Assembly (NCBI RefSeq): GCF_964204645.1 | Contig: NC_134026.1 | Location: 13,204,050 to 13,268,049 of the forward strand | DNA length: 64,000 nt | Source of the DNA: Tubulanus polymorphus | Taxonomy: Eukaryota; Animalia; Nemertea | Direction of reading: 5' to 3' | In this document: piece after piece, positions 1-64,000 of the stretch | How the letters are laid out: every line of letters starts with the position of its first letter | How positions within the stretch are numbered: the stretch's first letter is position 1 | Position numbers and translations under genes: made by a program | Notes under the pieces: generated by a model | The model's input: only the letters and a program-made list of their open reading frames with translations | Databases searched by the model: none | What the model was told of the DNA's origin: nothing

Positions 1-187
1 CCCTTAGCCTATGTAGCGAATCATCATATATTTTAGCATGCGCATGTGCAGTCGGGACAGGTGGTTAGCCTGTGTGTGACCGAAATAAACGAGTATCTTA
101 TGATCTGTAGACTGAACCCGTCGTGTTTTTAGTCTTTCTCTTCTTTTATCTCCGAACCTGGTCTTCTTTGTGACTCGCAACGCCACA
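1..187 (+). repeat. 5' LTR (partial)
   Basis: Matches 5771-5958 except for about 3-4 differences; ends ...CGCCACA. Confidence 0.95.
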
Positions 188-188
188 T

Positions 189-206
189 TGGTGCCGTGAC
201 CAGGAT
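189..206 (+). promoter_or_regulatory. Primer binding site, probably tRNA-His
   Basis: TGGTGCCGTGACCAGGAT 1 nt after the LTR; complementary to a tRNA-His 3' end (...GTCACGGCACCA). Confidence 0.8.
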
Positions 207-213
207 CAGCCGA

Positions 214-2022
214 ATGGAGGATACTCAACTGAACCGGTCGACAATCACACGAACTGCAATCAGGCAGAAAGTTGATGATCTCGTCGTGAAATCGTCAACA
301 ATCGTCGAAGATTTTCGAATGACCGAAGACGATGTAGATTTACTAAATATCTACATCAAGCAGATCACAGAAAAGTTAAGTCGACTAGAGAAGCTAGACT
401 CGACGATCGAGGACCTAACTCCTTTAACGCATCTTTCAGACACGATTCAAGAAGCAGAGGACTTCAGATCTAGCGTCATCGAAAAACGCGGCCGAATAAT
501 CCGATTTGTAGAAAAGGCGAAGCACACAACGCAACCTCATAATTCTTCGATGAACAATTCCGGTGCTTCTGCGACGCCATTTCGCCCGAACAAGGTAAAT
601 CTACCTAAACTTACGCTCGCCAAATTCGACGGCGATTTACTCAAATGGCAGGAATTCATAGACGGATTCTATTCAGCGGTCAACGACGACCCGAATCTCG
701 ACGACGTCGTTAAGTTCCAATACTTACGCGCACAACTTAACGGCGAAGCTTACAGAACGATCGAGGGTCTGGCCCTCACCGCGTCGAATTATGTGAACGC
801 ACTTCAAGTACTGATAAAAAGGTATGGGCAACCGCAAATCCTTATCAGTGCATATATGCGAGCGTTATGGGAACTTTCGCGACCGACAGAAGACATGCAG
901 AGTCTGATGGAATTTTCGGACAAACTGGAAACATATATCCGAGGACTAAGTGCGCTCGGAAAAAACGAAGATAGCTACGGAGATTTGTTGACTCCGATTA
1001 TCTTAGATAAACTGCCTGGGATGATACGACGACAGATAACGAGGGATAATAACGGCGCGAATTGGAATCTCCAGTCGTTGCGAGATGCCCTTTCGAGAGA
1101 GATAACAGCGTTCCAGGCAGGAGTTTCAGTGTACCCAGAAACTGCTCACCTGGGTACCACGTCAGCGTTCCACGTGGGCAATGCGATCAAGAGAAAACCA
1201 TTAAAATGTACATTTTGTAAAGGGACACATTTCGCGTCAGATTGTGTTCTTGTAACCGAACCAGAGAAACGCCTGGATATCGTTAAACGAGATAAACTTT
1301 GTTTTAATTGCATGGGCACTCATCGTTCTCGGGACTGTAAATCCAAGAACACATGTAAAAAGTGCAGAGGGAAACATCACACGTTACTATGTGGTTCCTC
1401 CCTTACAGAAACGCGCGAGATTTCTACGAAAGATCGACCACAAAACGGAAGCAGAAGCGATTCTCACGATATAAAAACTGTTCATCAAACGTATGCCGGC
1501 GCCCAACAACCACGACCAGATGGGCCCATACTTCTTAAAACAGCTGTGGCGGAGATTTTTTCGCCATCAACTTCCGCTAATAACCGCTCGAATGGTCGTA
1601 AGATAAACATTTTACTGGACGAAGGCAGCCATAGATCGTTTATCACGACGCGAATTTCTGTCAGCTTAAATCTCCCACATCTGGGCCAAGAGGAAATCAA
1701 TCTAGCGACATTCGGAGAACAACTGGCCGGTCGGCGATTACTTCAAAGAACGAACTTTAACATCGCGTCATCAGAGGGTTCACCGATACTAATTGAAGCC
1801 CTCGTGATACCGACCATCTCCACGCCAATCAGCAATCTTGTAAACAATAAAGTTTTGGATCTTCCGCATCTGCGAAACCTAACTCTAGCGGAACAGCCAT
1901 CATCAATAACCGGCGACTTTGATATCGATGTATTAATTGGCGCCGATTACTACTGGTCTATAGTCGGCGATAATACCGTGAAGGGCTACGGCCCGACTGC
2001 CGTTTCATCACGTAGCCTATAG
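214..2022 (+). CDS. gag: BEL/Pao Gag plus aspartic protease (N-terminal part of the interrupted polyprotein)
   Basis: DUF1759-like LPKLTLAKFDGD..W; three Cys-His knuckles (CTFCKGTH, CFNCMGTH, CKKCRGKHHTLLC); protease ILLDEGSHRSFI and DVLIGADYY. Confidence 0.9.
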   Translation: MEDTQLNRSTITRTAIRQKVDDLVVKSSTIVEDFRMTEDDVDLLNIYIKQITEKLSRLEKLDSTIEDLTPLTHLSDTIQEAEDFRSSVIEKRGRIIRFVEKAKHTTQPHNSSMNNSGASATPFRPNKVNLPKLTLAKFDGDLLKWQEFIDGFYSAVNDDPNLDDVVKFQYLRAQLNGEAYRTIEGLALTASNYVNALQVLIKRYGQPQILISAYMRALWELSRPTEDMQSLMEFSDKLETYIRGLSALGKNEDSYGDLLTPIILDKLPGMIRRQITRDNNGANWNLQSLRDALSREITAFQAGVSVYPETAHLGTTSAFHVGNAIKRKPLKCTFCKGTHFASDCVLVTEPEKRLDIVKRDKLCFNCMGTHRSRDCKSKNTCKKCRGKHHTLLCGSSLTETREISTKDRPQNGSRSDSHDIKTVHQTYAGAQQPRPDGPILLKTAVAEIFSPSTSANNRSNGRKINILLDEGSHRSFITTRISVSLNLPHLGQEEINLATFGEQLAGRRLLQRTNFNIASSEGSPILIEALVIPTISTPISNLVNNKVLDLPHLRNLTLAEQPSSITGDFDIDVLIGADYYWSIVGDNTVKGYGPTAVSSRSL

Positions 2023-2102
2023 GGTATCTCTTATCAGGGCCCATACCGAGCCACACCTTACTCACCGGAGTAAGGAATTCAACCGTTCTCAACGTATCTT
2101 GT

Positions 2103-5100
2103 GTGAGAAATATGGATCTCAATTCGCACCGCGGAGAGGAAGTCTCATTACAATCGTTTTGGGACTTAGAAACGATCGGCATCAAAGATGACGCTTCTTT
2201 GATAAAAAACCGTGGACTTGCTTATTCGGACTATATTAAAACCCATCTAACTGTTGACAGCGATGGACGCTATACTGCGAAACTACCTTGGAAAGAAAGC
2301 CACGCCCCCTTGCCGGACAACAGACACGTGGCCGAAGCACGGACTCGCAGTATGATACGCCGTTTATCCGCAGAAATGAGAACCGTATACGATGCAATAA
2401 TTGAAGAACAACTGTCGCGTGATTTCATAGAGGATGTAACACATGACATCTCTAGTATCGGACACTATTTACCCCACCGAGGAGTAAAAAAGGACTCTAC
2501 TACCACGCCTCTCAGAATCGTTTTCGACTGCAGTTGTAGAGTCGGAAGCGAACCGTCGTTGAATGATTGCTTGGAAACTGGACCCCCGCTCCTTAACGAT
2601 TTGGTATCTATATTGTTGCGATTTCGATTGTACTCTACGGGAATATCCACCGATATCGAAAAGGCATTTTTAAAAATAAGACTCCACGAACACGATCGGA
2701 AGTATACCAAATTCTTGTGGTTAACCGACCCAAATGATCCGGAAAGCGATTTCAAAGTACTTCAGTTTAAAAGTATCCTGTTCGGAGCGGTCTCGAGCCC
2801 GTTTGTCCTTAATGCCACTGTCAAATCCCACTTAGCCAATTACGATTGCGAAACCGCGGGGAAATTGGCCGAAAACATATACGTGGATAATATCGTCACT
2901 GGAGTAACATCTGAGGACAAAGCGATAAACTTTTATGCACAATCAAACGAAATAATGAATTCTGCAGGCTTGGCCCTCAGAGCGTGGGCAACTAATTGCC
3001 AGAGACTGTGTAATTTGGCGAGCTCGGATGGAGTAGCCGAGTCGAAACCCATCGCGAACGTCCTCGGGATCCGATGGGACACTCATAACGACACCCTTAG
3101 CATCAAGGTAGATGACGGAACGTCCGATCTGGTGACAAAACGTGAGGTAGTTAGCGCGGCGTCGAAGTTATATGATCCGCTTGGTTTTCTGGCCCCCGTA
3201 CAGGTCAGGGCTAAGATGTACATCCAGGAACTCTGGAAACTTAATCTAGGCTGGGACGACCCAGTACAGGACGAATCAATGCGAGAAAAATGGTTCTCGA
3301 TTCGGAATGATTTGTCAAGTGCGTCAGAAATTGTGTTATCAAGGAAATACTTAAGTCAACCGCAAACCCAGAATTATGAAATACATGTGTTTGCTGATAG
3401 TAGCAAAGCAGCATTTGGAGCTGTGGTTTATTTACGAAACCAGCATGATACATCGTTTGTTATGTCTAAGACACGTGTCGCACCAGTGAAGGAATTAACT
3501 ATTCCACGACTGGAATTACTTGCTGCTTTGACCGGTTCGAAGCTTATCGATTATGTAACTGAATCGCTCGGTTCCGAAATCGCTATAACCAAAAAAGTGC
3601 TTTGGAGCGATAGTCAGATTGTGCTTTGTTGGTTGAACTCCGATCGAAAGTTACCAGTATTCGTCAGCAACCGCGTGGAACAGATTAAATCTATCAAAAT
3701 TGACGAGTACCGTTACTGCCCGACGTCTGATAATCCGGCAGACATACTATCGCGTGGAATCGACTCCGAGAAACTACGGCATTCTAATTTGTGGTGGTTT
3801 GGCCCCGAATGGCTGAAACATGGTGACTGGCCCGTGGATAAATTATACGCTGACACTAGCACAGTTAATATCCTCCACATCAACGATCCTAAACCCGGGC
3901 AGGTTGAAGACACGGAGGACGAACGGATTGGTTTGGTAGAAATAATCGACATTGAACGATTCATCGAGTTGGGATCATTATTACGTGTCACCGCTTACGT
4001 TTTCTTGTTTGTCGCGAAACTTCAACGCCAGACAGATCGGTCCGCCGCGGATCTGACGCCGAATGATATAGCCCGAGCTAGAACGGCGTGGGTTAAAGCT
4101 GTGCAAAATGCTAATTATTCGAATGAAATTTTCGTGCTGCAGGGTAATCATGCAAAATCGCGAGCGCCCCTGACAAAGCAGCTACGGTTGTTTATTGGCG
4201 ATGATAGTTTGTTGAGAGTTGGAGGGAGACTCCATAACGCCCCGATTGATTATGGCGCGAAATTCCCAATATTACTTCCCCCGAAAGGGCGATTTACCGA
4301 GTTAACTGTGATTGATGCTCACGCGAGAGCACTTCATTTGGGTACAGAATCAACGATTAACCGTATTCGACAAACTTATTGGATTCAAAGTATCAGGAAA
4401 GTCGTTAAATCTCTGTTGCGAAAATGTTACAATTGCAAAATCATTAGTGGTCAGCCATACCCACTACCGGACCCTGCACCGTTGCAGAAGAGCAGGCTGA
4501 CAGATGCCCCTCCCTTTACCGTAACGGGAGTGGATTTCACCGGACATTTGTTCGTGAGAGATAACAACAGAGAAGCGAAAGCGTATATAGTCTTGTTTAC
4601 ATGTGCGAACACACGTGCCGTTCATCTCGAGGTTGTTTCTGATATGTCGTGTGCCACATTTCTTCTCGCCTTCCGACGTTTCGCCGCACGTCGATCCTTA
4701 CCTCAAAAGTTGATAAGTGATAACGGATCGGCATTCGTGGCCGCGGTGGGAGAAATAAAGAAGCTTCTCGATATTCATTCGGTTCGAAAATACATGCTCG
4801 AGAAAAATGTTGAATGGGTATTTATACCAAAGGCCGCCCCATGGCATGGTGGCTTTTGGGAACGTTTAGTTGGACTTACGAAACAAGTTCTGAAACGTGT
4901 TTTAGTCCGCGCATACATATCGATGTCTGAACTTATTACGCTCATCGCGGAAATCGAAATGGTGATCAACAACCGCCCGCTTACGTATTTGTCCGATGAC
5001 GTAACTGATCCAGAACCGCTGACACCATCGCACCTCCTTCACGGACGAGTTATGTCGAATCTACCGCACCTATCTGATACCGATGCTATCAGTGATCCGG

Positions 5101-5543
5101 AGTATGGTGTTTCGATAAACACACAAAACCTCCAGAAACGCGCACAAAGAGTGATGGAACTCTTCGAACATTTTCGGTCTCGTTGGACCAACGAATACGT
5201 TATTGCGCTACGTGAACGACATCTGTCCATGCGAAATAATGGCAGAACAAGCAAGATTCGATCAGGAGACGTTGTACTCGTACACGACGACCAAAAACGT
5301 AGAATTAACTGGAAGCTTGCGATCGTAACGAAACTGAACTACGGGAACGACGGCGCAGTTCGTTCAGCAGAAATTAGAATGGGCACTACAAATACTAGCC
5401 GACCTATAAATGAACTGTTCCCGCTTGAAATTAACACCGATATGAACTTTAAAGAGCCTGGCTCCGTTATAGCCTCCGATCCGCGACCCGTGCGAAACGC
5501 AGCGCGAAAGGCTCGTGCAAAAATCGTCGAATGTTTGAAATAG
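2103..5543 (+). CDS. pol: BEL/Pao Pol (RT, RNase H, integrase)
   Basis: RT: DIEKAFL, LFGAVSSPF, YVDN. RNase H: HVFADSS, WSDSQI, NPADILSRG. Integrase: HHCC zinc finger plus GVDFTG, ISDNGS, GGFWERLV. The frame is open back to 2020. Confidence 0.95.
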   Translation: MRNMDLNSHRGEEVSLQSFWDLETIGIKDDASLIKNRGLAYSDYIKTHLTVDSDGRYTAKLPWKESHAPLPDNRHVAEARTRSMIRRLSAEMRTVYDAIIEEQLSRDFIEDVTHDISSIGHYLPHRGVKKDSTTTPLRIVFDCSCRVGSEPSLNDCLETGPPLLNDLVSILLRFRLYSTGISTDIEKAFLKIRLHEHDRKYTKFLWLTDPNDPESDFKVLQFKSILFGAVSSPFVLNATVKSHLANYDCETAGKLAENIYVDNIVTGVTSEDKAINFYAQSNEIMNSAGLALRAWATNCQRLCNLASSDGVAESKPIANVLGIRWDTHNDTLSIKVDDGTSDLVTKREVVSAASKLYDPLGFLAPVQVRAKMYIQELWKLNLGWDDPVQDESMREKWFSIRNDLSSASEIVLSRKYLSQPQTQNYEIHVFADSSKAAFGAVVYLRNQHDTSFVMSKTRVAPVKELTIPRLELLAALTGSKLIDYVTESLGSEIAITKKVLWSDSQIVLCWLNSDRKLPVFVSNRVEQIKSIKIDEYRYCPTSDNPADILSRGIDSEKLRHSNLWWFGPEWLKHGDWPVDKLYADTSTVNILHINDPKPGQVEDTEDERIGLVEIIDIERFIELGSLLRVTAYVFLFVAKLQRQTDRSAADLTPNDIARARTAWVKAVQNANYSNEIFVLQGNHAKSRAPLTKQLRLFIGDDSLLRVGGRLHNAPIDYGAKFPILLPPKGRFTELTVIDAHARALHLGTESTINRIRQTYWIQSIRKVVKSLLRKCYNCKIISGQPYPLPDPAPLQKSRLTDAPPFTVTGVDFTGHLFVRDNNREAKAYIVLFTCANTRAVHLEVVSDMSCATFLLAFRRFAARRSLPQKLISDNGSAFVAAVGEIKKLLDIHSVRKYMLEKNVEWVFIPKAAPWHGGFWERLVGLTKQVLKRVLVRAYISMSELITLIAEIEMVINNRPLTYLSDDVTDPEPLTPSHLLHGRVMSNLPHLSDTDAISDPEYGVSINTQNLQKRAQRVMELFEHFRSRWTNEYVIALRERHLSMRNNGRTSKIRSGDVVLVHDDQKRRINWKLAIVTKLNYGNDGAVRSAEIRMGTTNTSRPINELFPLEINTDMNFKEPGSVIASDPRPVRNAARKARAKIVECLK

Positions 5544-20808: not shown

Positions 20809-20979
20809 TATTAGATATTTAAATCATTTAACTCAATTCAATAATTATAATGTAGAATTGTTACGCTTTACGCCAGTTTTTATGTTTAATTGTTTCATAA
20901 TGCTTTGATTTATGTGATTATAAGTATCTGGACAATTTAATTGCTCCGCATAGATAGACAAAAGTAGTGAGATATTCAA

Positions 20980-21921: not shown

Positions 21922-22072
21922 TTATATAACAAAAAAATTAGTTGTGATGTTGCAACTAGAATTTAACTAGAATGTAAATAGAATTCAACTAGATTAACAA
22001 GCTAGTTGAAATATTGTTGTTTTTATTTATTTATTGTTAGATCTAGTTGATTTTTGTTCCAACTACCAATAA

Positions 22073-23128
22073 CTAGAATTCAACTAGAATGGAGCTAAAA
22101 TATACTAAAATAAATTGAATTACTAAAATTATTATTAATTCTTCGTTCATAAAATGTTTTCTAATATCTGGCCATTGATCTATCATTCTCATTCCTTGAC
22201 AAAATATTTTATTTGCTATTCCTTCGATAGTTATTTCTACTTTTGCTATTTCAGGATTATAATAATTATCAACCTTTATTGCGCCATTAGAATATGTTGC
22301 AATGGTAAAAAATATTAATATACCTTTAATAGATCTTCTTGGGAAGTTAATATTCTCATTAATTATTTCATCATTTGCATTAATAGTTACAGTTTTAAAT
22401 TTATCAATATAATCATATAATAATGAAAATCCTTGATTGTATTGAGTTTGAATTGTGCTAGCAATATTTTCATTAGTTACTGTGTAATATTCTAAACATA
22501 TATTCGATAATTTATAACCCATATCTTTAACAACGCTAGATAATACAATTTCATTTACAGGAGCAAATGTTACCTCAAATATAATATCTTCTTGAATTAC
22601 ATATTTATATAAAGGTGCATTATTATTTATCAATTCAAAGTCTAATGGAATTTTATATTTGCTTCCATAAATCTTTTTAATCAAATTATCTGCGGCACGA
22701 GTTACTATTGCGTCATTAGCTCCTGATCTTAATTTATTATGGTTTTCCGATTGAATGCCTTGAAATATCATATTATTTCTATTTTCTTTAGTTAACCATA
22801 AATCTTTATAATGCATAAATAAATTATAATCATCTAATGACAAAACTGTTTCTGGACCAATCTTTATTGTTAATTTTTTAATCAAATATCTTCCAACATT
22901 ATCAACAACATAATTATTATTATTACCGATTACTTTTATATCGGCTGATAAATGAATACTATTTGGAACATAAAAAGTATTTTGTGTTAATCTAGGAATT
23001 CTAACATATAAAGTTTCATCAGGATTAATATTAGAAGGGTTATGAGTGATTATATGATGTGATCTTTCTGCTTTAATAGCATTAGATATTCTATGATTCT
23101 TAGAAGGATTGATATAACTCCCACTCAT
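22073..23128 (-). pseudogene. Putative major capsid protein (double jelly-roll), C-terminally truncated
   Basis: Beta-strand-rich, about 415 aa in fuller copies, highly conserved among copies, adjacent to integrase and ATPase in copy C. Homology stops near 22140. The fold is inferred, not computed. Confidence 0.6.
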
Positions 23129-23148
23129 TTATTTAACAAAAAAATTAA

Positions 23149-24549
23149 TCATTTATTTTTGTTGGTAAACATTTTCATGTTTACCAACCCAAAAATAATA
23201 GCACTTACAACTGTAATTAAAAATAAAATAATATGTTCAGCAGCAAAGTTAATAATATTTCCTGCTGATTTCAATATAAAACCAACAATTGATGCAATAA
23301 CTCCGGGCAATGCTGCAGCAGATTTTTTAGATAGTTCCCATAAATATTTTGCTAATTTCTTTAAACCATCTTTAACTTTATCTTGTATAGAATCTGGGGG
23401 TTTATCTGGTTTATTGGGAGTAGGAGTAGATTTCAGTGAATTTGATATAGCTAAACCGATTGTTGTGAATACCATAGTTACAGATGTTAGAATTGAAATA
23501 ATTGTTATACCTTCTAATTTAAATAATAATTTTATTCTATCTTAATGATATTTCAGAATTTGGTTTCATTTGATATCTTTTAAAAACATCTTTTAATCTT
23601 TTAAAATTATTACCATATTCTTTTAATAATATATCTCTTTCTTTTTTCTGTAATTCTAAATTATCTTTTAAATTATTAATTTCTTTTTCTAAACGTAATT
23701 CTTTTTGCCTATATTCTATTTCATCAATTACTTGTCGTTCTAAATCAGACTTTAATTGTTCTATTTCCTAATTTTTATCAGTTAATTCTTTTTCTAAAGT
23801 TCTAATTTTAAAATCTCATACTTTTATCGTGCGCAAATTTATCAGCTTTATTTCTTATATTAATAATTTCTCTAATTGCTTTATCAGAAAATATATTTAA
23901 ATCTTCTAATTGTTGATCTGTTGCATCAAGTAATCCATTCGGTAAAAGTTTTTCAGTTTGAACTTCGTTTGATTTAATTTTACTAGTTTTGGAAGTTTTA
24001 TTCTGTTCAGAAGTTGTTTCTGTTTTTGAATTATTTTTGATTGTTTCAAATAATTCATTAATTCTTTGTTTAAATACTCTTTCATTTTTAATACTTTCTT
24101 CTTGTGTTACATTTTCTATTTCATTACTATTTCTTATTCTTTTAATTCTAGATAGGTCTAACTTAAGCAAAGTTGATTCTTTTAATATTTTGTTTTGTTT
24201 TTTATAAGAGATATCAATATAATAATCACCGGTCAAATGATAATAATATTCACCATCTAAAAATTCTAAATTTTGTGCTAAAATTCTGGCGTCTCTAAAA
24301 TTTATATTATATTCAGATCTTTCAAATATATGTTGTAATCTACGCGCTTGGTTTATATTTTCTAAATCTTGTCTTATTAAATATGGATTTTCATTTTCAG
24401 GATTTATTCTCGATCTAGATCTTCTATCAAATGCATCTGTTGATGGGGCTTTATAACCACTATCTGTTAAATTAGAATTATATGCTGTTTCATCATTATT
24501 ATCAATATTAGTTTCAGCATCATTATAATCATCTTCATTCTTCTTCCAT
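23149..24549 (-). pseudogene. Acidic-N-terminus coiled-coil protein with C-terminal membrane segments
   Basis: Fragments homologous to 34648-36118 and 51731-53188. Confidence 0.7.
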
Positions 24550-24904
24550 TTATATAATAAAAAAAACTAAAATTTAAAATATAATATTCCTCCTATTACA
24601 GGGCCTATTATAGATTTACCGTCATTAAAACTTGTTTAAAATCAGGCGGTTGTTCTTCAGTTATGCCGTGTTCATCAAAAGTATCCATTCCAATATCTTC
24701 TCCATCTTCTACATCCATTTACATAATAAAAAAATTAAAATCTAAAATATAATATTCCTCCGATTACAATTCCTATACAAGTTATAGCTAATTTAGTATT
24801 TTCATGGGATTTATTTATCATCATCTAGTTTAATTATTTCATGTTGAATATTATCAGTTTTTATATCTTCTGATGTATTGTAATCTTTTATTTTAGAATC
24901 ATTA

Positions 24905-25394
24905 TTAGGGTTTTCTGACTTTCGTCGAAAACCCTCTTGAAATTCTGTTCATTATTATTATTATTTATTTTCCGCCGATTTCGTCAAATAAAATTCATCT
25001 TCATTCAGATTCGGCAACTGACAGCTTCGAAACGAAATGTATAAATTGATACTGTAATAACGGTCTCTCTGAACCAACAGATTGTCTGAATGTACTTTCC
25101 ATCCTATTTGAAACTTAAAATTACTTATTAGGTTACTGTAAATAAAGAATTGAATTGAATTGTTAGACAACAAGCACCGGCGAAATAACAGTTTGTGACG
25201 TCATTTAGTAAGTAAATAAAGGAGGGCTCCGAGAATTTCCAAATCACGGGGACTATACTGGGGTTAGACCATTCAACCAAAAAGAGGATTGCTCCGATAA
25301 TATCCAAATCATCTCATTTTATTTTTTCCATCGAATACCCGGTAATTAATTTTTCCTTTCGATCACATGCATCCAGAAAACCCGTTATCGCTGC
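24905..25394. mobile_element. Non-autonomous Helentron/DINE-like (HINE) insertion
   Basis: Absent from the paralogous position near 53370. Sub-terminal IRs GGGTTTTCTG / CAGAAAACCC, a 5' inverted partner GAAAACCC, a (TTA)n tract and a truncated 3' tail. Confidence 0.55.
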
Positions 25395-26569
25395 TTCTTA
25401 GTTTTACTTTCTGTCGATTGAATATGTTTTTTATTTTTTTCACCTTCCATTAATTTTGGAGCAGTGATAATCTTTTTATTTATATCATTTAATCCAAATG
25501 GATTATTTATTGTTGCAGTTTTAATTAGATTATTATAACCAATTATATTTCCCATCTTTAATACTAAATCATTAGAAATAATTAATAGATTAGGGCCTAT
25601 ACAATAATTTAATCTAATATGTGATTTATCTAAATAATTTTGATATCTTAAAATGTTTTCTGGAATCGATCTATTTTTATCATTATGAATTGAATCTTCA
25701 AATAATACTTTGAATTGTTTCTGTGTATCAAATGATGTATTTAAATTTCCTAGAATACATATCAAATAAGTTCTAATAGATTGATTTATTCTTTGTATAC
25801 CTGATTTTGTAAAACCTTCATTATTTTCTAAAATGAAATAAACCCAACCATTATTGTTTTCTTGTTTTAAATGATCATAAAATTTCGGTAATTTATTGAA
25901 ATCTAATGTTTCTAAATCCTTAGTTTCTATTTTACCATAACCTAATTTATTACTATAGATATTATACAAACTATTAGATGGTATGGGAAGTGCACAATAT
26001 TCTGCAATCTTTTTAGGGCAAGGAAGTGATCTTATTGTTCCAATTTTTGTTCTAAAATCAGAATTATTTATATCTATATTAAATTCATTGCAAATTTTAT
26101 AAAACTTTGATAAATTAATATTATTATCTAATTCTTTAAAATATCTAGATCCTGGTAAAGCACACTCTAATTCATTTAATATTATTCTGATTTGAAAGTA
26201 TGTATGATATCTAAATAAACTTTGAATTAATTTATATTTAGAATTATTCAAATGATCATTCCAACTAATTCCACAACCTGTTGTTGCACAATAAACGGCA
26301 AAATTTAATTGGTTCTGCCAATACGTCATATTAGATTTTAATAACCATTGTTTTTCATCTTTCAATTTTTTGAAATCAATTAAATATACATGAAATATAT
26401 TTTCCATCTTTGCATTACAATTATTAGTTTCAGTAACATAAATTTCTAAATTAGTTAATGAATCTAAAACTTCATTTCTATATGTAATATCTTTATTAAA
26501 ATCTATTGCAGGAATATTATATTTAATTGATTTATTATATTGGAAATCTTTTGGAAAAATATCTACCAT
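25385..26569 (-). CDS. Conserved hypothetical structural-block protein; C-terminal TM anchor cut off by the insertion
   Basis: YWQNQLNFAVYCATTGCGIS and FRxHTYFQIRIILNEL shared with 33331-34632 and 53205-54563. Confidence 0.75.
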   Translation of the reverse strand: MVDIFPKDFQYNKSIKYNIPAIDFNKDITYRNEVLDSLTNLEIYVTETNNCNAKMENIFHVYLIDFKKLKDEKQWLLKSNMTYWQNQLNFAVYCATTGCGISWNDHLNNSKYKLIQSLFRYHTYFQIRIILNELECALPGSRYFKELDNNINLSKFYKICNEFNIDINNSDFRTKIGTIRSLPCPKKIAEYCALPIPSNSLYNIYSNKLGYGKIETKDLETLDFNKLPKFYDHLKQENNNGWVYFILENNEGFTKSGIQRINQSIRTYLICILGNLNTSFDTQKQFKVLFEDSIHNDKNRSIPENILRYQNYLDKSHIRLNYCIGPNLLIISNDLVLKMGNIIGYNNLIKTATINNPFGLNDINKKIITAPKLMEGEKNKKHIQSTESKTKKQR

Positions 26570-27017
26570 TTATATAATTAAAAAAATAATAATTTATTAA
26601 TTCTTTTAATAATTTATCTTGTTCTTCAACTGTTATATGGCCATTTAAACTTATAATATAATCTAGTGTATTCTTTAATTTATTAATGTCTTTTATATTA
26701 GTTTTAATTTTTTCTTTATTACTTTTTATATTTAATTTTGAACTTATACCAGTTAAAACACTTGAACTTAAACCTAATACACCAATTGATATAGTTAAAG
26801 GTGTTAATGGGCTGAATATTGCTAAAAATGTTATTACAAAACTAATTGTAACCGAACCACTTATAATCAAATAATATATAATTTTACTTTTTAAATATTT
26901 TTTCTTTTTAACTTTTAAATCACTTTCAAATTCTAATATTTGTTTTTCTAAATATATTTTTAATTCAGTTTTACTTATATCATGAGGAATAATATCAATA
27001 TCAACTTTATCATCCAT
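26535..27017 (-). CDS. Two-TM membrane protein (homologue of 32880-33314)
   Basis: Near-identical to 32880-33314 with two hydrophobic segments; the stop codon is altered here. Confidence 0.7.
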   Translation of the reverse strand: MDDKVDIDIIPHDISKTELKIYLEKQILEFESDLKVKKKKYLKSKIIYYLIISGSVTISFVITFLAIFSPLTPLTISIGVLGLSSSVLTGISSKLNIKSNKEKIKTNIKDINKLKNTLDYIISLNGHITVEEQDKLLKELINYYFFNYINGRYFSKRFPI

Positions 27018-27379
27018 TTATTTAGAAAAAAAATTACTAATTAGTAAATTTATATGCTACAAATATAACAATAACTAATCCGCCTTAAATCCAAATTATT
27101 TCATATTTCTGTTGTTCTTTACCTGGGGTATAATAATCTGATATTGTAGGTTTATGTAGATGCAATTTTTCTTTATTGGTTACCGCGTTATATAAACTCA
27201 TTGCATCATCAACTGATTGAAAATCTCTATGTGAAATCTTCTGATCATATAATTCCTTGTTAATATGATCCATATAGTTTTGTCTTTTTTCTCTATATTC
27301 TTCTGCTGCTTTATTGTATTTTTCTAATGCTAAGTTATGTCTTCTTTGTTCTCCTAATGAACTATTTTTATCAATATTA

Positions 27380-29975
27380 TCAACCACATGTTTTGTTATT
27401 CCTTTTATCTTTTTAGCTTCATGATCTTTTGTTCTGTAACCATACATTTTACTTCTTATCCCAACAAATTCAATCATTTCATCACCCCCTAATTCATCTT
27501 TAAATTTACCAGGAATCTTTTTATCATCATTGCTAAATAGTTCATGATCTTTGGGATAATTGCTAAAATCAAAATGATGTTTTAATGTTTTTAAGTCTTT
27601 TGTTATGTCATTTGTCTTGATTTTTAGTATGTAGGCGTCCGTATTTTTGGCAATTAATGGAAATCCACAGTTGAATGTACCATCTTCAGTTGATTAATCA
27701 TATACATAATCTGATGAGTTACATATTTCAAATAAATCTTTAACTTCTTCTGTTAACTCATTTTCTACATGGTTTAAATTAAAGCAATTTGGTTTAGATT
27801 TAATCAATCCAATATTCATATTAAAACCTAATGAATTGCATAATATATTAACTTTTCCTTTTTGTGCAAAGGTTATCTTTTTATACTTAATAAATTTTTT
27901 AGTACCATCTGCTGCGTAGAATCCAATGAAGAACCATTTTCTTAAATTATCTTTTGCATTTAATACATAATCTGGAACTATCTTTTCTTTTGTTGAAGTA
28001 TTACTTTTCACTATTGCATGAATATAGAATTCATCATTATATTTTATAGCAAAATCTTTAGGATTATTTACAAGTATTCTATAAACTGCTGATGATTTCA
28101 TAACATCCATGATTCTAAATGTTTTATGTGAATAAACTTCTTCACAGAATTTCTTAATTCTTTCTAATAATTTCAAGTCTTGATTGCATAAATACCAACA
28201 ATATTTATTACCCCAAACATAATTATACACACCTGCTGAACCATCACCCATGAAAAATCCTTTGATAAAATATTCTTTTTCTTCTAATGTTTCAGGTTCT
28301 ATATTATAAATATTATCAATTATTTCATCAAATGACATATGATTTATTCTTTGGAAAAATCTTTTATGTAATAATTCATCTCCAATTTTTATATCAGTTG
28401 GTTTTATTTCATCGCCATTTCGTTCAATTGAACTATGATCTTCTGTAACATCTACAAACCCTAATTTAGTTCTAACTCTATAGATTTTCTTATTTGTTTT
28501 ATGCCTAATAATATTCTTCAATTTTTTCCATCCATTTCTTGTCCAAACATCCATTAAACCATTTATTTGTATTAATTCTTTTTCACCATATGAAATATAA
28601 CATTCATTTTGTTTTGGAATTATTTCTGAAATTCTTCTGATCAATATTTTATCATTACATTTTAATAATATTGGGGTGACAGCTGTTACAGAATCAAAAT
28701 ATAATATTTCAATATGCTTTTCCCCAAAAAGTGGTTGTAAAACATTATAATAAAAATCATACATTAATAATTTTGATACTTCTAAAACAGTTGAACCAAT
28801 GAATATAGGTTTATTAGATTTCATTGACGTTCTTTTTAATTTAACTACTGTTAAATAATCTTCAAATCTTTTTATTTCCTAAATGTCTAGGACTTGATTG
28901 TAAATGTCTTAATCGTTCAGAATTAATTACTAATTCAATATCATTTCTATTTCTAATATTTTCACATGTGTTACCATAAAAACTATTATTAATTAATTTG
29001 AAGAAATCTTTTTCAAAATCTGTTTTTGATATGGTTCTCTGTTGAGTATTGAAATCTATATATTTTTCTAACCACTTCGATTGATTAAATTCAATATATC
29101 TATGTACTTTCTTTAATTTCATTCCTTGTTTTAGATAAAATTTTAACATTCTATAATGAACAATATAATTATATTTATTATTTTGAGTAAGTATTAATTT
29201 TTCTGTAAAAACATGATCTTTCTGTTTTATTTTCTTCTGGTATTCATTTGAATAACTATCATCTACAGTTAAATGTTCTGGGCAATAAGGTAAGTTTCTT
29301 GTTTTAAACTTTATATTTTCAGGATATTCTAAATCAACTACAAAGAAATAACCAATTGGTGCTTCATCTTTTAAACTCGCAATTGCGCTTTCCCAATCAG
29401 TTTTATCATCATTTTCAACTTCTGTTAATATAAAATTTTTATATGGTTGAGGTTGCATCATCGCCCAACCATATTAATTATTGGCGTCACTATATAATAA
29501 TTTATATTCATCATTTGCTTTAAAATACCTATCTCCCATAACACCACTAATTCCACCTCTAATTGATCTTTCAAATAATAAAACCATGTCTGGTTCTTTT
29601 AATAAATCTAATTCTACATTTGTGTATTTTAAACCACATTGCCAGGTTAAACCAGGACTAGAGTAGCAATAACAAGGATCAACATTAAAATGATTCAAAT
29701 TAACTTCTCTAAATTTTTCAAATATGTCAGCCAATATCATAACATCTGATTTTAAATGTAAATCAACTAATTCGCCATGATTTTTCATCTTAAAATGGTT
29801 CCAAATATTTAATGTTCTATTAAACACTTCGTCTTTCACATACTCCTCTTTTAATTGATCATAAAATTGATCTTTTAATAATTCTGTTACATTAAAATCA
29901 TTGTGTGTTTTATAAAATGAATAAGGAATTGCACCTTTATATCTCAATAATTTAAAATCTTGTTCATTTGGATAA
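27380..29975 (-). pseudogene. polB: Protein-primed family B DNA polymerase (pPolB), partial, intein-containing
   Basis: SSPGLTW, IRGGIS, motif A DANN*YGWAM, motif B FFKLINNSFYG, motif C LYFD-[intein]-TDA, then IPGKFKDE and EFVGIRSKMY. Stops at 29474 and 27694; frameshift near 28860. Confidence 0.93.
27643..28692 (-). mobile_element. Intein with LAGLIDADG homing endonuclease (350 codons, one premature stop)
   Basis: Block A SVTAVTPILL, block B VDVTEDHS, blocks C/E FIKGFFMGDGS and FFIGFYAADGT, block F YVYD*STEDGTFNCG, block G LIAKN then +1 Thr. Removing it restores YFDTD. Confidence 0.93.
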
Positions 29976-30013
29976 TAATATCGAGTTATAACAAAATCAT
30001 TATCAACTAAACA

Positions 30014-30176
30014 CTAGAACAAAAGACCATGAAGCTAAAAAATTAAAAGGAATAACAAAGCATGTGGTTGATAAACACATAAAATTTCAAGATTATATAA
30101 AGTGTTTATATAACTCAATTGTAATGAAACATAAAATGAATTGTTTAAGATCAGAAGATCACGCGATGTACATTAA
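30014..30176 (+). pseudogene. polB: pPolB C-terminal fragment
   Basis: RTKDHEAKKLKGITKHVVDKHIKFQDY...NCLRSEDH, overlapping homology with 27380-27440 and 60558-60685; followed by unrelated, GC-richer DNA to about 30640. Confidence 0.8.
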
Positions 30177-30719
30177 CGCTGGGGATATATTTCTTCATTA
30201 TCCATTCAATGTGGGGGAATTAAATTTGGCCTTTATTGTCTTATGATTTCTATGTAAAGTTAGATACATTTCCAGTGTAGAGACCCTCCTAAAACCAGTA
30301 TCTGTTATGAAGCTAATAGGTATCTCTACCAGAAAATGTTAGTTACAAAAAGTTTGGACCTACGGGTGCAAGGTAGGACCCCCCAAAACCTGAGGTCAAG
30401 TTGAGGTCACGCAACCAAAAAAGTCGACGACAACCAGTACATACTGCCTGTGTGTGTAGAGTATATACAATCGCTTGTGAGCTCTCTATAGAGCATGCTG
30501 ACTCAGTGTCAGCAGCCAGGCTCGACTACTTTGCCATCTATCGGGGCTAATAGGAACCGTCACTTGAGGCGTGACCACGACCTAGTCTCTTTGTTTAAGC
30601 TGTCACGTGAGGCGTGACGACGCCAACTGAAGAGTTGAAAGAGAAGAAACAAAAGAGAACGAGATAATGAAAAGAATTCTAACGTGTTAATCAAATTTTA
30701 ATAAAAATATGTTATTAAA

Positions 30720-31055
30720 ATGGAGAGTAAACAAACACACAGGGAGAACAACAAATTATTTCTAGATAGAATAAAAGTTATCACAAATGTAAAATCTGTA
30801 GATTATAAATTCAAAAAGTTAACAGAATTAACAATTCATGAGAAATATCTAATTACAAATATTGATACTAATAACTATGGAGATGAATTAGTTATACACT
30901 TAGAATATGAAGGATTAAAAGGAAATACATATAAATTCAGAACCAGATAGATTTCATAGATTATCAAGTGAAGATTTAGAAGAATTATGTTCTGGAGATT
31001 TCTATTTCGTATACAAAGGTAAGAAAAGGGGCACCATGAAATAGATTTCGAATAA
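30720..31055 (+). pseudogene. Small hypothetical protein, frameshifted, distantly similar to 46171-46497
   Basis: Shared F-KL-(E/D), YG(D/E) and terminal GHH(E/D) pattern. Confidence 0.5.
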
Positions 31056-31072
31056 GAAAATATGTAAAATAA

Positions 31073-31827
31073 ATGGTAGAATTAAAAGAATACAGAATAT
31101 TTGTTGATTCAAGAAAACTTACAAATTATAAATCTCATAATTTACTAGTACAATTAGATGGGGAATATAAAAATTGTGTTGATTTAAAATTAGTTAATAT
31201 AAGTTTATGTAATTCTTTTCATAATATATCGAATAAAAGTCTTGATCATTAAGCTTTTAAAATTCATGTTAGAAATTTGGATAAATGGTTTCATCTTTAT
31301 CTAAAACCAGGATTATATAATTTAGAAACATTAGCGCAAGAAATTAATAGAAGAGCTCGTTTAAAAATGGGCGCAGCTGCTAGATTTGAAATTAAATTTA
31401 TCAAAAGTGATAGTTCGAATAAAATAAGAATGAAGTTAACTAATGAACAACATAGATTTCTAGTAAGAAAACCTTTAGCTAAACTGTTTGGAATTCTCCC
31501 AGATAGAGATTATTCAAGTATCGAAACTTATACAAATTTAATGACTTTTACACATTTTTATATTTATTGCAATTTAATTGATCCTACAAAAACATTTGAA
31601 GCAACTAAAGAAACAATTTGTAGTTCTAGTATACTAGATATTTTACCGCTAAAAATGTTAAACAATTTGTAACTCAAATAAATTATAATTTAACAGAATG
31701 TGATTTCAAACCATGCATTCCTAAATTTAATAATTTTAAATTAGAAATAAGAAATCATAATGGTTATTTAATTGATTTGAATAATTTCCCTGTAATTTAT
31801 GAATTAGTTATAAGATGTAGAGAGTAA
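31073..31827 (+). pseudogene. Putative minor capsid (penton, single jelly-roll) protein
   Basis: IFVDSR..., NSFHNIS, LKPGLYN, FYIYCNLI and C-terminal KLEIRNHNGYLIDLNN..YELVI, a pattern typical of Polinton/virophage/NCLDV pentons. One stop and one frameshift. Confidence 0.65.
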
Positions 31828-31844
31828 TTTTTTTCACTATACAA

Positions 31845-32147
31845 ATGAATATAACTGTTGGGCCGAGCATATGTTTTGGATTTGATTTTAAACGTGAGAA
31901 AGAAATGAAATTTAACGTTAATGATGTAATTACACATATTAAAAATATTGCATTTTCAAATGAAACAACATTTGAGTATGAAACAACAATAGATAAAGAA
32001 ACTTTAAATGTAGAAAAGATTACTAATTTAATTAGAGAATCTTTAAGATTTTATGAATTAGATGAAGATTTTATCATCGATGATATTAAAAAAATAATAA
32101 TTGAAATATATACAAATGAAACTAGTAATGAAATAAATGTTGAATAA
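31845..32147 (+). CDS. Hypothetical protein (homologue at 58058-58405)
   Basis: Near-identical ORF in two copies. Confidence 0.65.
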   Translation: MNITVGPSICFGFDFKREKEMKFNVNDVITHIKNIAFSNETTFEYETTIDKETLNVEKITNLIRESLRFYELDEDFIIDDIKKIIIEIYTNETSNEINVE

Positions 32148-32437
32148 ATAATCATAAATAAGATAACTAAATATTTTGATGATAGTAATTTTTTTGATAA
32201 ATAAATGAGTGATAATAAGTGGATAATAACTGGATTATATAATGGAGCATTACTATCAGTTGGAACTGTTGGTTATTCAATGTATTTAAAATGGGAAGTG
32301 TTAATGTTGATAGATTTGATATAAATGATATTTTAAAATTAACGTTAGCAGTTACTTTATCTAATTTAACTATTGATTATTTAGAAAAACAAAAATATAT
32401 TCCTCCCATATAAATGCATAATTATTTTACTAAATAA

Positions 32438-32863
32438 ATGGCTTCTGCAGTTATAACTATTATAGGATCGGCAATTGTTAACGCTTTAGCATTTACTGGT
32501 GGTGGATATTTATTTAAGCATATTGATAAAAATGGATCATTAACAGAACAAAAAAGACATAACTTAGCGTTAGAGAAATACAATGAAGCTGCAGAAGAAT
32601 ATAGAGAAAAGAGACAAAACTATATGGATTACATCAATAAAGAATTATATGATCAGAAGATTTCACACAGAGATTTCCAATCAGTTGATGATGCAATGAG
32701 TTTATATAACGCGGTAACCAATAAAGAAAAATTACATCTACATAAACCTACGATATCAGATTATTATACCCCAAGTAATGAACAGAAGAAATATGAAATA
32801 ATATGGATTTTAGGTGGAACTGTTATTGTTATATTTGTTGCTTATAAGTTTATTAATTGGTAA
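32438..32863 (+). CDS. Membrane-associated protein with hydrophobic N- and C-termini
   Basis: MASAVITIIGSAIVNALAFTGGGYLF..EQKRHNLALE..C-terminal TM; homologous remnants at 27040-27378 and near 55.1 kb. Confidence 0.75.
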   Translation: MASAVITIIGSAIVNALAFTGGGYLFKHIDKNGSLTEQKRHNLALEKYNEAAEEYREKRQNYMDYINKELYDQKISHRDFQSVDDAMSLYNAVTNKEKLHLHKPTISDYYTPSNEQKKYEIIWILGGTVIVIFVAYKFINW

Positions 32864-32879
32864 TTTTTTTGCTAAATAA

Positions 32880-33314: not shown

Positions 33315-33330
33315 TTTTTTAATTATATAA

Positions 33331-34632: not shown

Positions 34633-34647
34633 TTTTTTATTATGTAA

Positions 34648-36118: not shown

Positions 36119-36148
36119 AAATAAATAATTAATTTTTTTGCTAAATAA

Positions 36149-48765: not shown

Positions 48766-49308
48766 TCAACTTATCCATATATTCATTATGTAAATATGTG
48801 GAATAATATCATTTTCCTCAAGTGCATTTTTCATCGATTTTCTATCTTTATTGTAGAATAAAACTAGAAATCTAATGTTTTCTCTAAAGTCTTTAACAAT
48901 TGAATTATATTTTTGGTTTAAAACCCAAGTTGTTATCCCAAAATGTCTGCCAGAAAAAGCTAAATAGCATAACTCACTCTCTCTAACTTTTGAATCATGT
49001 AGATTAGCACAATCATCTATAATGAATAATGTATTTGATCCTTTATAAATATCAATTGCTATTTTAATACAATTATCTAAATTTTCTTTTACTGTTTTAG
49101 GATCTAATATAATAAATTTATTATTTCTAGTAATATTTCTATCATAAGTTTGATTAAATTCATATGTTGGGCAAAATAATACTATATTATCAAAATAGTT
49201 TTTATAAACAGTTTCTAATAAATTTAATATAAAATAAGTTTTTCCACAATTTGTTACACCAGAAATTAACATATTATGAGGCTCAAATATAAATAATTCC
49301 TTATTCAT
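48766..49308 (-). CDS. A32/FtsK-HerA-like genome packaging ATPase
   Basis: Walker A SGVTNCGKT, Walker B LFIIDD, arginine-finger GRH and sensor Q (LNQKY). The C-terminus may be frameshifted. Confidence 0.88.
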   Translation of the reverse strand: MNKELFIFEPHNMLISGVTNCGKTYFILNLLETVYKNYFDNIVLFCPTYEFNQTYDRNITRNNKFIILDPKTVKENLDNCIKIAIDIYKGSNTLFIIDDCANLHDSKVRESELCYLAFSGRHFGITTWVLNQKYNSIVKDFRENIRFLVLFYNKDRKSMKNALEENDIIPHIYIMNIWIS

Positions 49309-50436
49309 TTATATATTTTTAATTTTACTTGATAATATCCATTCATTGAATTTATCTGGCCATCTAACCCATTTTACTAAAGAATATTTTTTTCTTTTAA
49401 TAATTTTTGTTTTTAATACTTTTTCAATTTTATATTCTTGTTCTAGATTTTCAGTAGTTAAACTCAATTCTTCTTCGTAAAAGTAGCCATCAACTTCTTC
49501 ACTATCTAAATCTTCTAATTTATAGACATATGGTTTTGTTGTTATAACCTTTTTTATTTTATATATTTCTCTAGTAAAATTTCGATCGTATCCTTTGTCA
49601 AATATCTTTTTATACTTAGAAATTCTAACATTTTGACCAACTTTAAATCTAGGTTCACCAAAATCATCTACAAGAAATGCTCCATATAAATTATTCCAAA
49701 CAATTTCAGCATTTTCAGGTTTTCCAGCATCAATAGGTTTCATTCCAATAGAAGAATGATAAGAATTATTACATCCTTCTATCAATTTTGGTAAAACATC
49801 AATCCATTTAAAAGTATTATTTGCTGTAAAATATTTCCACATTCTTGTTCTTAATGTTCTATTAAATCGTTCAACAACTGCTGCTTTTTTATCCGATTTT
49901 GTTGAAAAATATTTAATATTATGATTATCTAAGAGTTCATGAACAAGTGAATTATCAAACTCTTTTCCATCATCAAATTGTATTTTTTCTGGTTTTAGTT
50001 TATCATCCGAAAGAAATTTTCTTAAAACATTTGATGTTTGTACATCATCTTTTCTATAAAGTGGGAAGCTCCATACATAACGACTAAAAATATCAATTAT
50101 ATTCAATAACCACCAATAATCATCATTATCTTTCTTAACATTTTTTATATCAATTAAATCTCCTTGCCATTGTTGATCTACATAACTTACCATAGTTTTA
50201 CGAGTTTTATATTTTCTAACAATTCTTTTATGTGTTGTGTATGTTGGTTGTTCTAACTTAAATTCATTTATATCTTTATATTTAACTAAATTTTGTGGGA
50301 TTATCTTATCTAATTTATCTTGTTTTACTTGACGCCATATATTTTTAGTAGAAGAATAAGCAACCGAACTCTCAGGGTTGTAATATAAATTTCTTAAATA
50401 TTGTTCTTTAGTATTAGGAGTTTTTTTACCACCCAT
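49309..50436 (-). CDS. Retroviral-like (rve) integrase with a C-terminal chromodomain
   Basis: WQGDLID, IQFDDGKEF and VVERFNRT form the DDE triad; FKVGQNVRI; chromo YKIEKVL..LVKW..W. ORF intact. Confidence 0.95.
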   Translation of the reverse strand: MGGKKTPNTKEQYLRNLYYNPESSVAYSSTKNIWRQVKQDKLDKIIPQNLVKYKDINEFKLEQPTYTTHKRIVRKYKTRKTMVSYVDQQWQGDLIDIKNVKKDNDDYWWLLNIIDIFSRYVWSFPLYRKDDVQTSNVLRKFLSDDKLKPEKIQFDDGKEFDNSLVHELLDNHNIKYFSTKSDKKAAVVERFNRTLRTRMWKYFTANNTFKWIDVLPKLIEGCNNSYHSSIGMKPIDAGKPENAEIVWNNLYGAFLVDDFGEPRFKVGQNVRISKYKKIFDKGYDRNFTREIYKIKKVITTKPYVYKLEDLDSEEVDGYFYEEELSLTTENLEQEYKIEKVLKTKIIKRKKYSLVKWVRWPDKFNEWILSSKIKNI

Positions 50437-61169: not shown

Positions 61170-64000
61170 ATGGAAGCAAATAAATACTACTGCCCAACAT
61201 GTAATATCGATATAGATAAGTCTCAAAAAGCAAGACACAATAAAACTATAACACATTTAGAGAATAAATTGAAACTAGAATATGAAGATGATATATTAGA
61301 AACTAAATTAGAAGAATTAAAGAATGAAAAAGAAACATACAAATGTGATACATGTAATCAATCATTCAGTGATAAAAGATATTATAATGAGCATTTAAAA
61401 TCTATAAGTCATATTAAAAATAAGAATAATGATATTTTAGGTGAAGATTATTTTGATAATGATAACGATAAGAAACAGAAGACAATTAAAAGCATAAAAA
61501 ATAAATTAAACAATAAAAGACCATACATGGAAGATGTAAGAAATTATATTAATTCATTAGATAATAAAAAAGATATAGAGATAACCGAAGCATTTAAAAG
61601 TGATATTGGTCCAGCAGCTATCGAGTTTAAATTTCATAAAGGAAAAACATTAGAAGAAAATAAAAAACATTTAGAAAATATGAAAAATATTATAAAAATA
61701 ATTACTGATGTTGAATATCCTAAAATTAGTATATCAGTTAAAGTAAAGTTTATAAAATCTGAAGATAAACCAATATATAATATAAATTCTCATTCACAAC
61801 ATATTATATCTAAACAACATATAGATGATAAATTAGATAAATGTTATAATGAAGTAAAAACTAAAATAGAAGAGAAATATTTTGAAGGATCTGGTTTAAT
61901 ATTTGATGAGATAATATTTATAACTTTACATGTTTATAACACAAAATATAATAAGTTAACTAAATCAAAACCAATTGATGAAAATAATTTATCATATTAT
62001 AAAGATGATAGTATAAATGGAACAAGTTATATTAAACTACCATTTAAAACTAATGCTGTAATAAATGTACAAAATTTTGATAATAAATGTTTTCTATGGG
62101 CTATAATAAGTTGTTTACATCCTGCAACTTATAATATTTGTAGATTAACTCATTATAAACCATTTAAAAATAATTATAAGATAGATAAGTATCCTGTTAG
62201 AATTAAAAATATTCCAAAAATAGAAAGAGATAATAATCTTAAAATAAATGATTTAATCAAATTACCAAATAAAAAAGGTAACAATATAAAACATTATACA
62301 TTAGAACCTTTATACCTATCAAAAGATTATGATTCAAATAATGTTATAGATATACTATATTATGAAAATCATTATATGTGGATTAAACAAATCGATTTAT
62401 TTTTCAAATCAGAAAATGATCACCATAAAATATATCTTTGTAGAAAATGTTTACATAGATTCAGTAATGAAAGTACGTTATTAAATCATAAACAATTATG
62501 TGAAAATCATGATTATTGTAAATTAGTTTTACCAAATGAAAAAGATAAAATATTAGAATTCAAAAAATATGATTACAAAAATAAAGTACCATTTGTAATA
62601 TATGGAGATTTTGAATCATTAAATAAAGAATTAACAGATAAAGATAGAAAAGAAATATATTATAAAAGAAAGAAATTAAATTCTAATGAAAGTGATTATT
62701 CAGAAGAACCACTAAAAACAAATACTATTAAAAAGATTCATCAATCAGCTGCAGCTTTCGGGTTATATATTAAATCTAATTATCCAGAACTAATTAAAAG
62801 TGAATATTATAATTATAGAAATGAAAATGTTATTAATCATTTTTGTGACTTATTAATTGAATATGAAATAAGATTTAGTAAATTATTGAATACAAATATA
62901 GAAATTATAATGACAGAAGAAGATAAAGAAGAATTTGAGTTTGCAGATAAATGTTATTATTGTAATCAAGTATTCTATTCATCTGATAAAAAGGTAAGAG
63001 ATCATGATCATTTGAATGGAAAGTTTAGAGGCGCGGCGCATGAGAATTGTAACTTACAAGCTAAGAAAATCAATTTTGTTCCAGTAATATTTCATAATTT
63101 ATCAGGATATGATGCACATTTATTTATCAAACAGTTATGCTATAAAATAGAAGAAATCAATAATGAAATAGAAATATTAAATTCAAATAGATCAAAAGAT
63201 AAAATACCAACTTATAAATTTAGAATGTTAGCTAGAACATCTGAGAATTATATATCATTCCAATTTGGTTGTCTAAGATTTATAGATTCATATAGATTTT
63301 TAAATAGTTCATTAAATAACTTATCAAAATCATTAGTTGATGATGAATTAAAGATATTAAAAGAATGTTACCCAAATAATGATGATTTTAAATTAATGAG
63401 ATATAAAGGAGCAATTCCATATTCTTTCTATAAAATTCATAATGATTTTAACATAACTGAATTATTGAAAGAACAATTTTATGATGAATTAAAAAATGAA
63501 TATGTTAAAGATGAAGTCTATAATAGAACATTGAATATTTGGAATCATTTCAAAATAGAAAATCATGGGCAATTAGTAGATTTATATTTAAAATCAGATG
63601 TATTATTATTAACCGATATATTCGAAAGGTTTAGAGATGTAAACCTAAAATATTTCAATATTGATCCTTGTCATTGTTATTCATCGCCAGGATTAACATG
63701 GGATTGTGGATTAAAATTTACAGATATAAAAATGGATTTGTTAATCTTTATGGTTGGGCAATGATGGAACCACAACCTTATGGGATGTTTGAAATAACTG
63801 AAGTTTTACAAATTGATAAATTTGATTGGAAGAAAAGAATCCTAGATATTGCAGATGATTCAGATATTGGTTACTTCTTCGTTGTAGATTTAGAATACCC
63901 TGAAAATATTAAATTCAAATCTAGAAATCTAGCATATTGTCCCGAACATAAAATTGTTAAACATGAAGAATTATCAAATTATCAAAAAAGAATTAAACCC
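61170..64000 (+). pseudogene. polB: pPolB of element D: N-terminal zinc fingers, endonuclease VII-like and 3'-5' exonuclease domains; internal deletion; runs off the window
   Basis: C2H2 fingers, NVQNFDNKCFLWAI, FVIYGDFES, CYYC..VRDHDHLNGKFRGAAHENCN, FHNLSGYDAH, FIDSYRF, YLKSDV, SSPGLTW. Near 63742 it jumps from DLL to NLYGWAM. Confidence 0.93.

Follow-up and report, generated by a model that had tools for sequence, protein, structure and literature searches.

A LAGLIDADG-type intein in the catalytic motif of a protein-primed Polinton DNA polymerase in an animal genome

The window (the whole stretch of 64,000 nucleotides analyzed here) carries an intein in motif C of a protein-primed family B DNA polymerase (pPolB) that belongs to a Polinton (Maverick). 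The insert is very probably a decayed intein of the LAGLIDADG type that occupies the pol-c site in an animal Polinton pPolB; intact copies are predicted to splice and likely home into empty copies. What was found is a real, old, and apparently unreported case in which the pol-c intein allele has reached protein-primed Polinton polymerases, with an animal genome as the setting. Its component parts are of known kinds, and the intein resides in a viral gene rather than in a host gene.

Anatomy of the intein and decay of the window copy

The insert is 1,050 nt long, is in frame, and separates ...IEILYFD from TDAYILKI on the reverse strand (Table 1). Class 1 inteins are spliced through Ser1, the TxxH motif, the terminal Asn, and the +1 Thr, while LAGLIDADG domains drive homing (PMC549080). 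The class 1 residues (Ser1, block B TxxH, block F Asp, terminal Asn, and +1 Thr) are all present in the window intein, in which S1, T83, H86, D150, D262, D332, K349, and N350 are in place. The splicing blocks, the Ser1, the Lys-Asn end, the +1 Thr, and the two LAGLIDADG motifs that had been quoted in the original prediction were thus all found as quoted. The penultimate residue is Lys and not the usual His, which occurs in relatives of the P0239 and P0003 types; among the matches listed, 44 of 120 distinct viral relatives have Lys at this position. The penultimate His of class 1 inteins is usual but not obligatory.

The original prediction had proposed a search with Hint/intein and LAGLIDADG profiles, and the 350-amino-acid product, with X at the stop, matched Pfam Intein_splicing (E 1.4e-5), TIGR01445 (E 1.3e-4), and LAGLIDADG_3 (E 2.7e-3), all below the curated cutoffs. 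A profile built from 80 relatives of the intein matches PI-PkoII (E 1.7e-16), PI-SceI, and I-DmoI, and the intact relatives P0044 and P0239 exceed the Pfam intein cutoffs. Taken together, these matches indicate that the assignment is not due to chance. A Hint fold is predicted for the window intein from the profile matches to solved inteins; a single-sequence structure model had a pLDDT of 35.5 and was unusable. A Hedgehog or bacterial intein-like Hint domain was ruled out, since a LAGLIDADG domain is present and the insert is missing from empty alleles. Without the insert, the flanks read as a contiguous motif C, and empty alleles lack exactly the length of the intein. Insert, motifs, and profile matches therefore agree with the claim of a full-length homing endonuclease intein at the pol-c site of an animal Polinton pPolB.

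Table 1. Features of the window, with strand and supporting evidence
Feature	Position	Strand	Evidence
BEL/Pao LTR retrotransposon, two long open frames	133..5543 (element to 5958)	+	Domain matches
Major capsid protein-like gene	22073..23128	-	Capsid_N E 8.7e-4, below cutoff
C-extein with Thr(+1)-Asp-Ala at its start; resembles intact pPolBs over about the first 100 codons	27346..27642	-	Extein comparison
Intein, 350 codons, in pPolB motif C (D/S ... KN/T)	27643..28692	-	Sequence, profiles, empty alleles of exactly matching length
C-terminal splicing blocks F (VYD, D332) and G (K349-N350), containing in-frame stop 27696-27694	27643..27711	-	Motif residues
Second LAGLIDADG motif (G257...D262-G263), with 5-codon gap after it, near 27850	27904..27930	-	Motif residues
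First LAGLIDADG motif (G145...D150-G151)	28240..28266	-	Motif residues
N-terminal splicing (Hint) region: Ser1, block B T83-x-x-H86	28360..28692	-	TIGR01445 aa 2-87; PI-PkoII aa 34-111
N-extein, pPolB polymerase part; stop 29476, frameshift 28889-28866, gene start missing	28693..30004	-	tblastn with P0240, 55% identity; PF03175 E 4.7e-4
Inverted piece of pPolB C-terminus adjoining the truncated gene	30019..30174	+	DNA/protein comparison
Further capsid-like copies	36149-36769, 51321-51710	+, -	DNA comparison
A32-type packaging ATPase and rve integrase with chromodomain, neighboring Polinton fragment	48766..50436	-	Pox_A32 E 4e-13; rve E 4.9e-10
Second, paralogous pPolB; frameshift near 63743; window end precedes its intein site	61170..64000	+	DNA comparison

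The window copy itself is a nonfunctional fossil, with two stops, a frameshift, and a lost N terminus, and it would have lost its function after integration. The stop within the intein falls at codon 333, ahead of block G. In X6, a genomic run of a related sample of which 12% was used and from which 8,024 reads were placed at 85% likeness, none of 154 covering reads carries this stop, in agreement with the proposal that it is a private decay of the window copy. A description of the copy as having a single stop holds for the inside of the intein and falls short of the gene, where there is more decay: the gap, the second stop, the frameshift, and the truncation. The 5-codon gap in the intein is in frame and is not found in P0008, and the intein deviates at 8 of the 58 columns that are conserved at ≥90% in 79 relatives. 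Compared with the intact P0240, the polymerase shows 55% identity across residues 747 to 1679, lacks the first ~746 codons, and has an altered C terminus. The gene at 61170 had been considered as the continuation of the intein-bearing pPolB, which proved incorrect: the gene lies on the opposite strand and is a paralogue in its own right, with 72 to 80% DNA identity over the overlap. A palindromic element of ~440 bp lies just upstream of this second pPolB (60686-61124) and has another copy, 93% identical, at 42065-42508.

Genomic setting and filled and empty copies

At least three fragments of a single Polinton family, rearranged and in both orientations, occupy 20925-38958, 47408-55411, and 58101-64000, with mutual identities of 86 to 93%. 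Across neighboring fragments, the hallmarks of Polintons were found, including the protein-primed PolB, the rve integrase, the packaging ATPase, and the capsid (weak matches); no match to a maturation protease was found among the ORFs scanned in the window. The inverted repeats listed for the window are gene duplicates and arrays of a 24-bp unit, and the region is a nest of Polinton fragments. The two 24-bp arrays, of ~121 copies (14954-17788) and ~78 copies (18992-20808), form inverted arms beside the Polinton genes and are open in several reading frames. In addition, a 116-bp tandem array of 3.9 copies is present at 40245-40707.

The gag protein of the BEL/Pao element points to an animal host, likely a ribbon worm: it shares 94% identity with a protein labeled Tubulanus polymorphus by its source. 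The next matches reach 42% identity at most, and those of them that are named all come from animals. The ends of this element are a 188-bp repeat, likely the LTRs, at 1-187 and 5771-5958; the element is probably young, since the repeats are 98% identical. A Harbinger-type transposon at 9215-12165 consists of a DDE_Tnp_4 transposase and, on the other strand, a Myb/SANT gene. It could be argued that the Polinton stretch lies outside the animal germ line, being either a chimeric join or the DNA of a food organism or protist symbiont, given that one marine metagenome has a small share of its words (0.10) and that other intein-bearing pPolBs are in records without a host label. The small share in the marine run X5 (11 contigs) was set aside as evidence. 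However, the Polinton fragments are interleaved with the BEL/Pao element, with its 94% identity to a ribbon worm protein, and with the Harbinger element; reads of a single genomic run cover the intein as well as the non-Polinton stretch at 40800-47300; and the copy shows neutral decay, as for an old insertion. We therefore regard a nonanimal source as very unlikely.

The X6 run does not come from the individual of the window, because only 253 of the 8,024 reads are ≥99% like the window. Its depth is 64 to 296 over the intein bins and 348 to 559 in the adjoining bins. In total, 78 reads (46, 29, and 3) come from empty sites, their joints taking out exactly 1,050 nt net at the intein position, and another 8 reads also skip this region by a net length that is not stated. 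In the non-Polinton stretch, at 95% likeness, the two lowest of 30 bins have depths of 8.4 and 8.6, which, provided that these lowest bins are single-copy, gives very roughly at least 25 filled copies. At the site itself, the empty-site reads differ directly from the filled copy (T-D-S codons, read by hand). Among 19 intein sites, drawn from a table listing 40 of 361 sites, third codon positions account for 5 of 7 segregating sites versus 3 of 12 copy-private sites (P = 0.07), a weak hint of purifying selection on the intein family and of neutral decay in the window copy.

Relatives of the window intein are present in many other pPolBs. Those in the pPolB fragments P0005, P0008, and P0010 are 65 to 71% identical to it, and those in pPolB clusters of 41, 55, and 14 members are 46 to 47% identical. 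Intact open frames with an intein are P0240 (61%), P0239 (48%; 136 members), P0243 (48%), and P0310 (37%), and PF03175 matches intact intein-bearing relatives with E values of 5e-17 and 7e-14. In the P0239 cluster, defined at 90% identity, the 16 of 136 members that are listed include 7 full-length filled alleles, 6 empty alleles, and 3 that end short of the site. The six empty alleles span the site without exactly residues 1042 to 1387. The filled inteins are 96 to 99% identical, and the empty N-exteins are 95 to 99% identical to P0239. Among the members listed, all 10 columns with no residue common to filled and empty alleles fall between -7 and +44 of the site, at which the empty alleles read YFD-TDA, YGD-TDA, or YTD-CDS and the filled ones read YMD/TDS (the slash marks the insertion point); the filled copy of the window reads YFD/TDA. 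A site-specific nuclease exerting pressure on the site would be expected to produce such unusual variation in the flanks of a catalytic motif. The pattern fits homing with co-conversion, which occurs during intein invasion (PMC10643990), and would also fit empty alleles that escaped through the uptake of resistant flanks; on either reading, a site-specific nuclease would be at work. This clearest homing pattern may be from a nonanimal host.

The intein may instead splice while its endonuclease is inactive in the animal lineage, with filled and empty Polinton subfamilies inherited side by side. The divergences of intein and extein run parallel across Polintons, as under vertical descent, the empty-site reads of X6 have other codons at the site and could be uncuttable, and the window endonuclease has its 5-codon gap. 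On the other hand, this gap is not found in P0008, the two LAGLIDADG motifs, Asp residues included, persist across ~50% protein divergence, and the differences between filled and empty alleles are clustered at the site in polymerases that are otherwise 95 to 99% identical. An inactive endonuclease is thus possible but seems the less probable state.

Under the favored reading of a splicing and homing intein, the precursor would be translated in frame, an acyl shift at Ser1 would be followed by attack of the +1 Thr and by Asn cyclization, and the catalytic D-T-D would be rejoined. That intact copies splice is inferred from the need to rejoin motif C for a working polymerase and from the multiplication of filled copies in an intact state. 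An empty site in a second Polinton copy of that nucleus would be cut by the endonuclease; the break would then be repaired with a filled copy as the template, so that the intein and short flanks are copied in together. We lean, by a small measure, toward the broader view that Polintons bring working homing inteins into animal germ lines, where they splice in animal cells and convert empty copies within the genome, having passed from giant-virus polymerases into two unrelated pPolB classes, possibly repeatedly.

Origin and phylogeny of the intein

The pol-c allele of the window, inserted between the first Asp and the Thr of motif C (YFD/TDA), is nested among YGD/TDS inteins. The best non-Polinton relatives show ~40% identity and are inteins at YGD/TDS of RNA-primed PolBs on giant-virus and metagenome contigs, and among the matches listed, 119 of 120 distinct bounded inteins from viral and metagenome loci are at this site. 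Viral and metagenome loci were taken as the best 80 from each of two scans; no pPolB was found among 195 loci on such contigs, and the bounded inteins examined were all at YGD/TDS or AGD/TDS. Searches with P0239 and P0240 matched no viral contig. The predicted kinship with inteins of large DNA viruses is thus borne out, in that the nearest outside relatives are the pol-c inteins of their PolBs.

For phylogenetic analyses, the viral inteins were reduced to 40 representatives at 70% identity and combined with 93 others in an alignment of 146 rows, after which sets of 67 and then 37 rows were chosen. Six pPolB inteins group into a clade (100/100) in the careful tree of 37 rows. The sister group of this clade (94/91, just short of the starred level) comprises ten viral pol-c inteins ending in GxPLIxKN-like motifs, with P0266 (named Mimiviridae sp. 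ChoanoV1) and a phage-like PolB among them. A quick mixture-model tree of 67 rows gave SH-aLRT values of 100 for the pPolB clade and 93 for the sister group, and the sister was left unresolved in a FastTree of 146 rows. The stem leading to the pPolB intein clade is long (0.48). These trees are unrooted; transfer from viruses to Polintons is suggested by the nested position of the pPolB inteins among viral ones and by the much greater diversity of the latter.

Intein and extein identities to the window run parallel in P0240 (61% versus 54 to 66%) and P0239 (48% versus 46 to 51%), and the base composition of the intein (GC 25.0%, GC3 14.6%) equals that of the extein (24.9% and 14.5%), which argues that the invasion was old and that the intein has since been resident among Polintons. 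The origin of the pPolB intein would thus be viral and old. In P0243, the intein is 48% identical, while the exteins have no detectable match, indicating at least one jump between pPolB classes, which are probably the two pPolB classes described in PMC8502044. Comparison of intein with extein therefore supports codescent in P0240 and P0239 and does not support it in P0243. According to this scenario, the intein would have come once, long ago, from a pool common to giant viruses and some T4-like phages and would then have diverged with one pPolB class, crossing at least once into a second.

A recent and direct jump from a Mimivirus-like virus into this element, as originally proposed, is suggested by the shared pol-c site, by a size close to that of the 351-amino-acid Mimivirus intein (PMC549080), and by the presence of P0266 in the sister clade. 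Nevertheless, the window intein is 37 to 39% identical to the three viral inteins compared versus 48 to 61% to other Polinton inteins, the long stem separates the pPolB clade from its sister, and both the matching composition and the parallel identities speak for long residence, so that such a jump is highly improbable. The supposed Mimivirus-like signature is also not specific to Mimivirus, since the KN end is shared by 44 of 120 and Ser1 by 120 of 120 viral relatives, in a set without the Mimivirus intein itself.

Whether pPolBs were invaded once or twice is more evenly balanced. The P0310 intein is placed in another viral clade (97/92) and has a different end, as would be expected if it had a separate viral origin. 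However, P0310 is a long branch, an approximately unbiased (AU) test does not reject a single pPolB clade (P = 0.20), and the identities of its intein (37%) and extein (35 to 43%) to the window are also parallel. A second invasion is therefore given a chance a little short of even.

The phage-like family B polymerases P0102, P0112, and P0252 carry inteins of the sister group to the pPolB inteins, which suggests exchange between phages and eukaryotic viruses. P0102 and P0112 were considered as possible pPolBs and were rejected, as they are of the PF00136 type and apparently T4-like. In addition, relatives of the intein occur at a second PolB site (after ...K.S.N) in P0094, P0099, P0101, P0104, P0107, P0125, and P0180, and P0241 and P0181 hold relatives of the window intein apparently in a type II topoisomerase.

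Significance and comparison with known systems

A survey from 2018 describes inteins as absent from metazoan genomes (PMC5784728, in the text accessible to us). Within the open full-text literature, as far as it is accessible, no report of a splicing intein in a Polinton pPolB was found, including in PMC12220804, PMC13768754, PMC5718144, and PMC3671162, and the word "intein" occurs 0 times in the accessible text of PMC8502044. The claim that such an intein is unreported in animals stands within that literature. Full inteins are now found in animal chromosomes, within a multicopy virus-like element and not in a host gene. The pol-c allele is extended from RNA-primed to protein-primed polymerases across ~20% extein identity, and such a jump is not easily explained by homing via close DNA similarity, a problem raised in PMC549080. 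The intein also attests that giant viruses and Polintons exchanged genes in the past, and because one genome contains both filled and empty copies, the cycle of intein invasion and loss can be measured from sequence alone. In practical terms, an unrecognized 350-amino-acid insert can disturb pPolB alignments and trees.

The window intein shares its insertion point in motif C with known pol-c inteins, namely, those at site III of archaeal PolB and at YGD/TDS of the Mimivirus PolB, and it also shares with them Ser1, the terminal Asn, the +1 Thr, TxxH, the double LAGLIDADG motif, and a size of ~350 amino acids (PMC549080). Unlike in the known hosts of pol-c inteins, the polymerase is here a protein-primed pPolB (PF03175) with ~20% extein identity to RNA-primed PolBs, the flank is YFD/TDA, and the gene is part of a multicopy element integrated in an animal genome. 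Entry into a nuclear genome via an endogenous viral polymerase gene is known from the inteins of Klebsormidium, Tetrabaena, and Hondaea (PMC10710043); as described there, those cases concern algae and a labyrinthulid, whereas the present one has an animal host, a Polinton as the vehicle, and many filled and empty copies.

Nuclease domains within Polinton pPolBs have been described in the form of HNH/VSR inserts (PMC10748475 and PMC11071308), and PMC11071308 speculates that these stem from intein invasions. In the accessible text of these reports, no splicing domain is described for the inserts, and "intein" occurs 0 times in PMC10748475. Unlike these inserts, a complete intein with Hint and LAGLIDADG parts interrupts the catalytic motif here, and the intein-bearing pPolBs also carry an Endonuclease_7-like domain that is separate from the intein. 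The inteins of invertebrate iridoviruses are likewise found in viruses of animals and presumably work in animal cells (PMC549080 and PMC5784728); unlike those in such large lytic viruses, the window intein lies in an element that is inherited in animal chromosomes.
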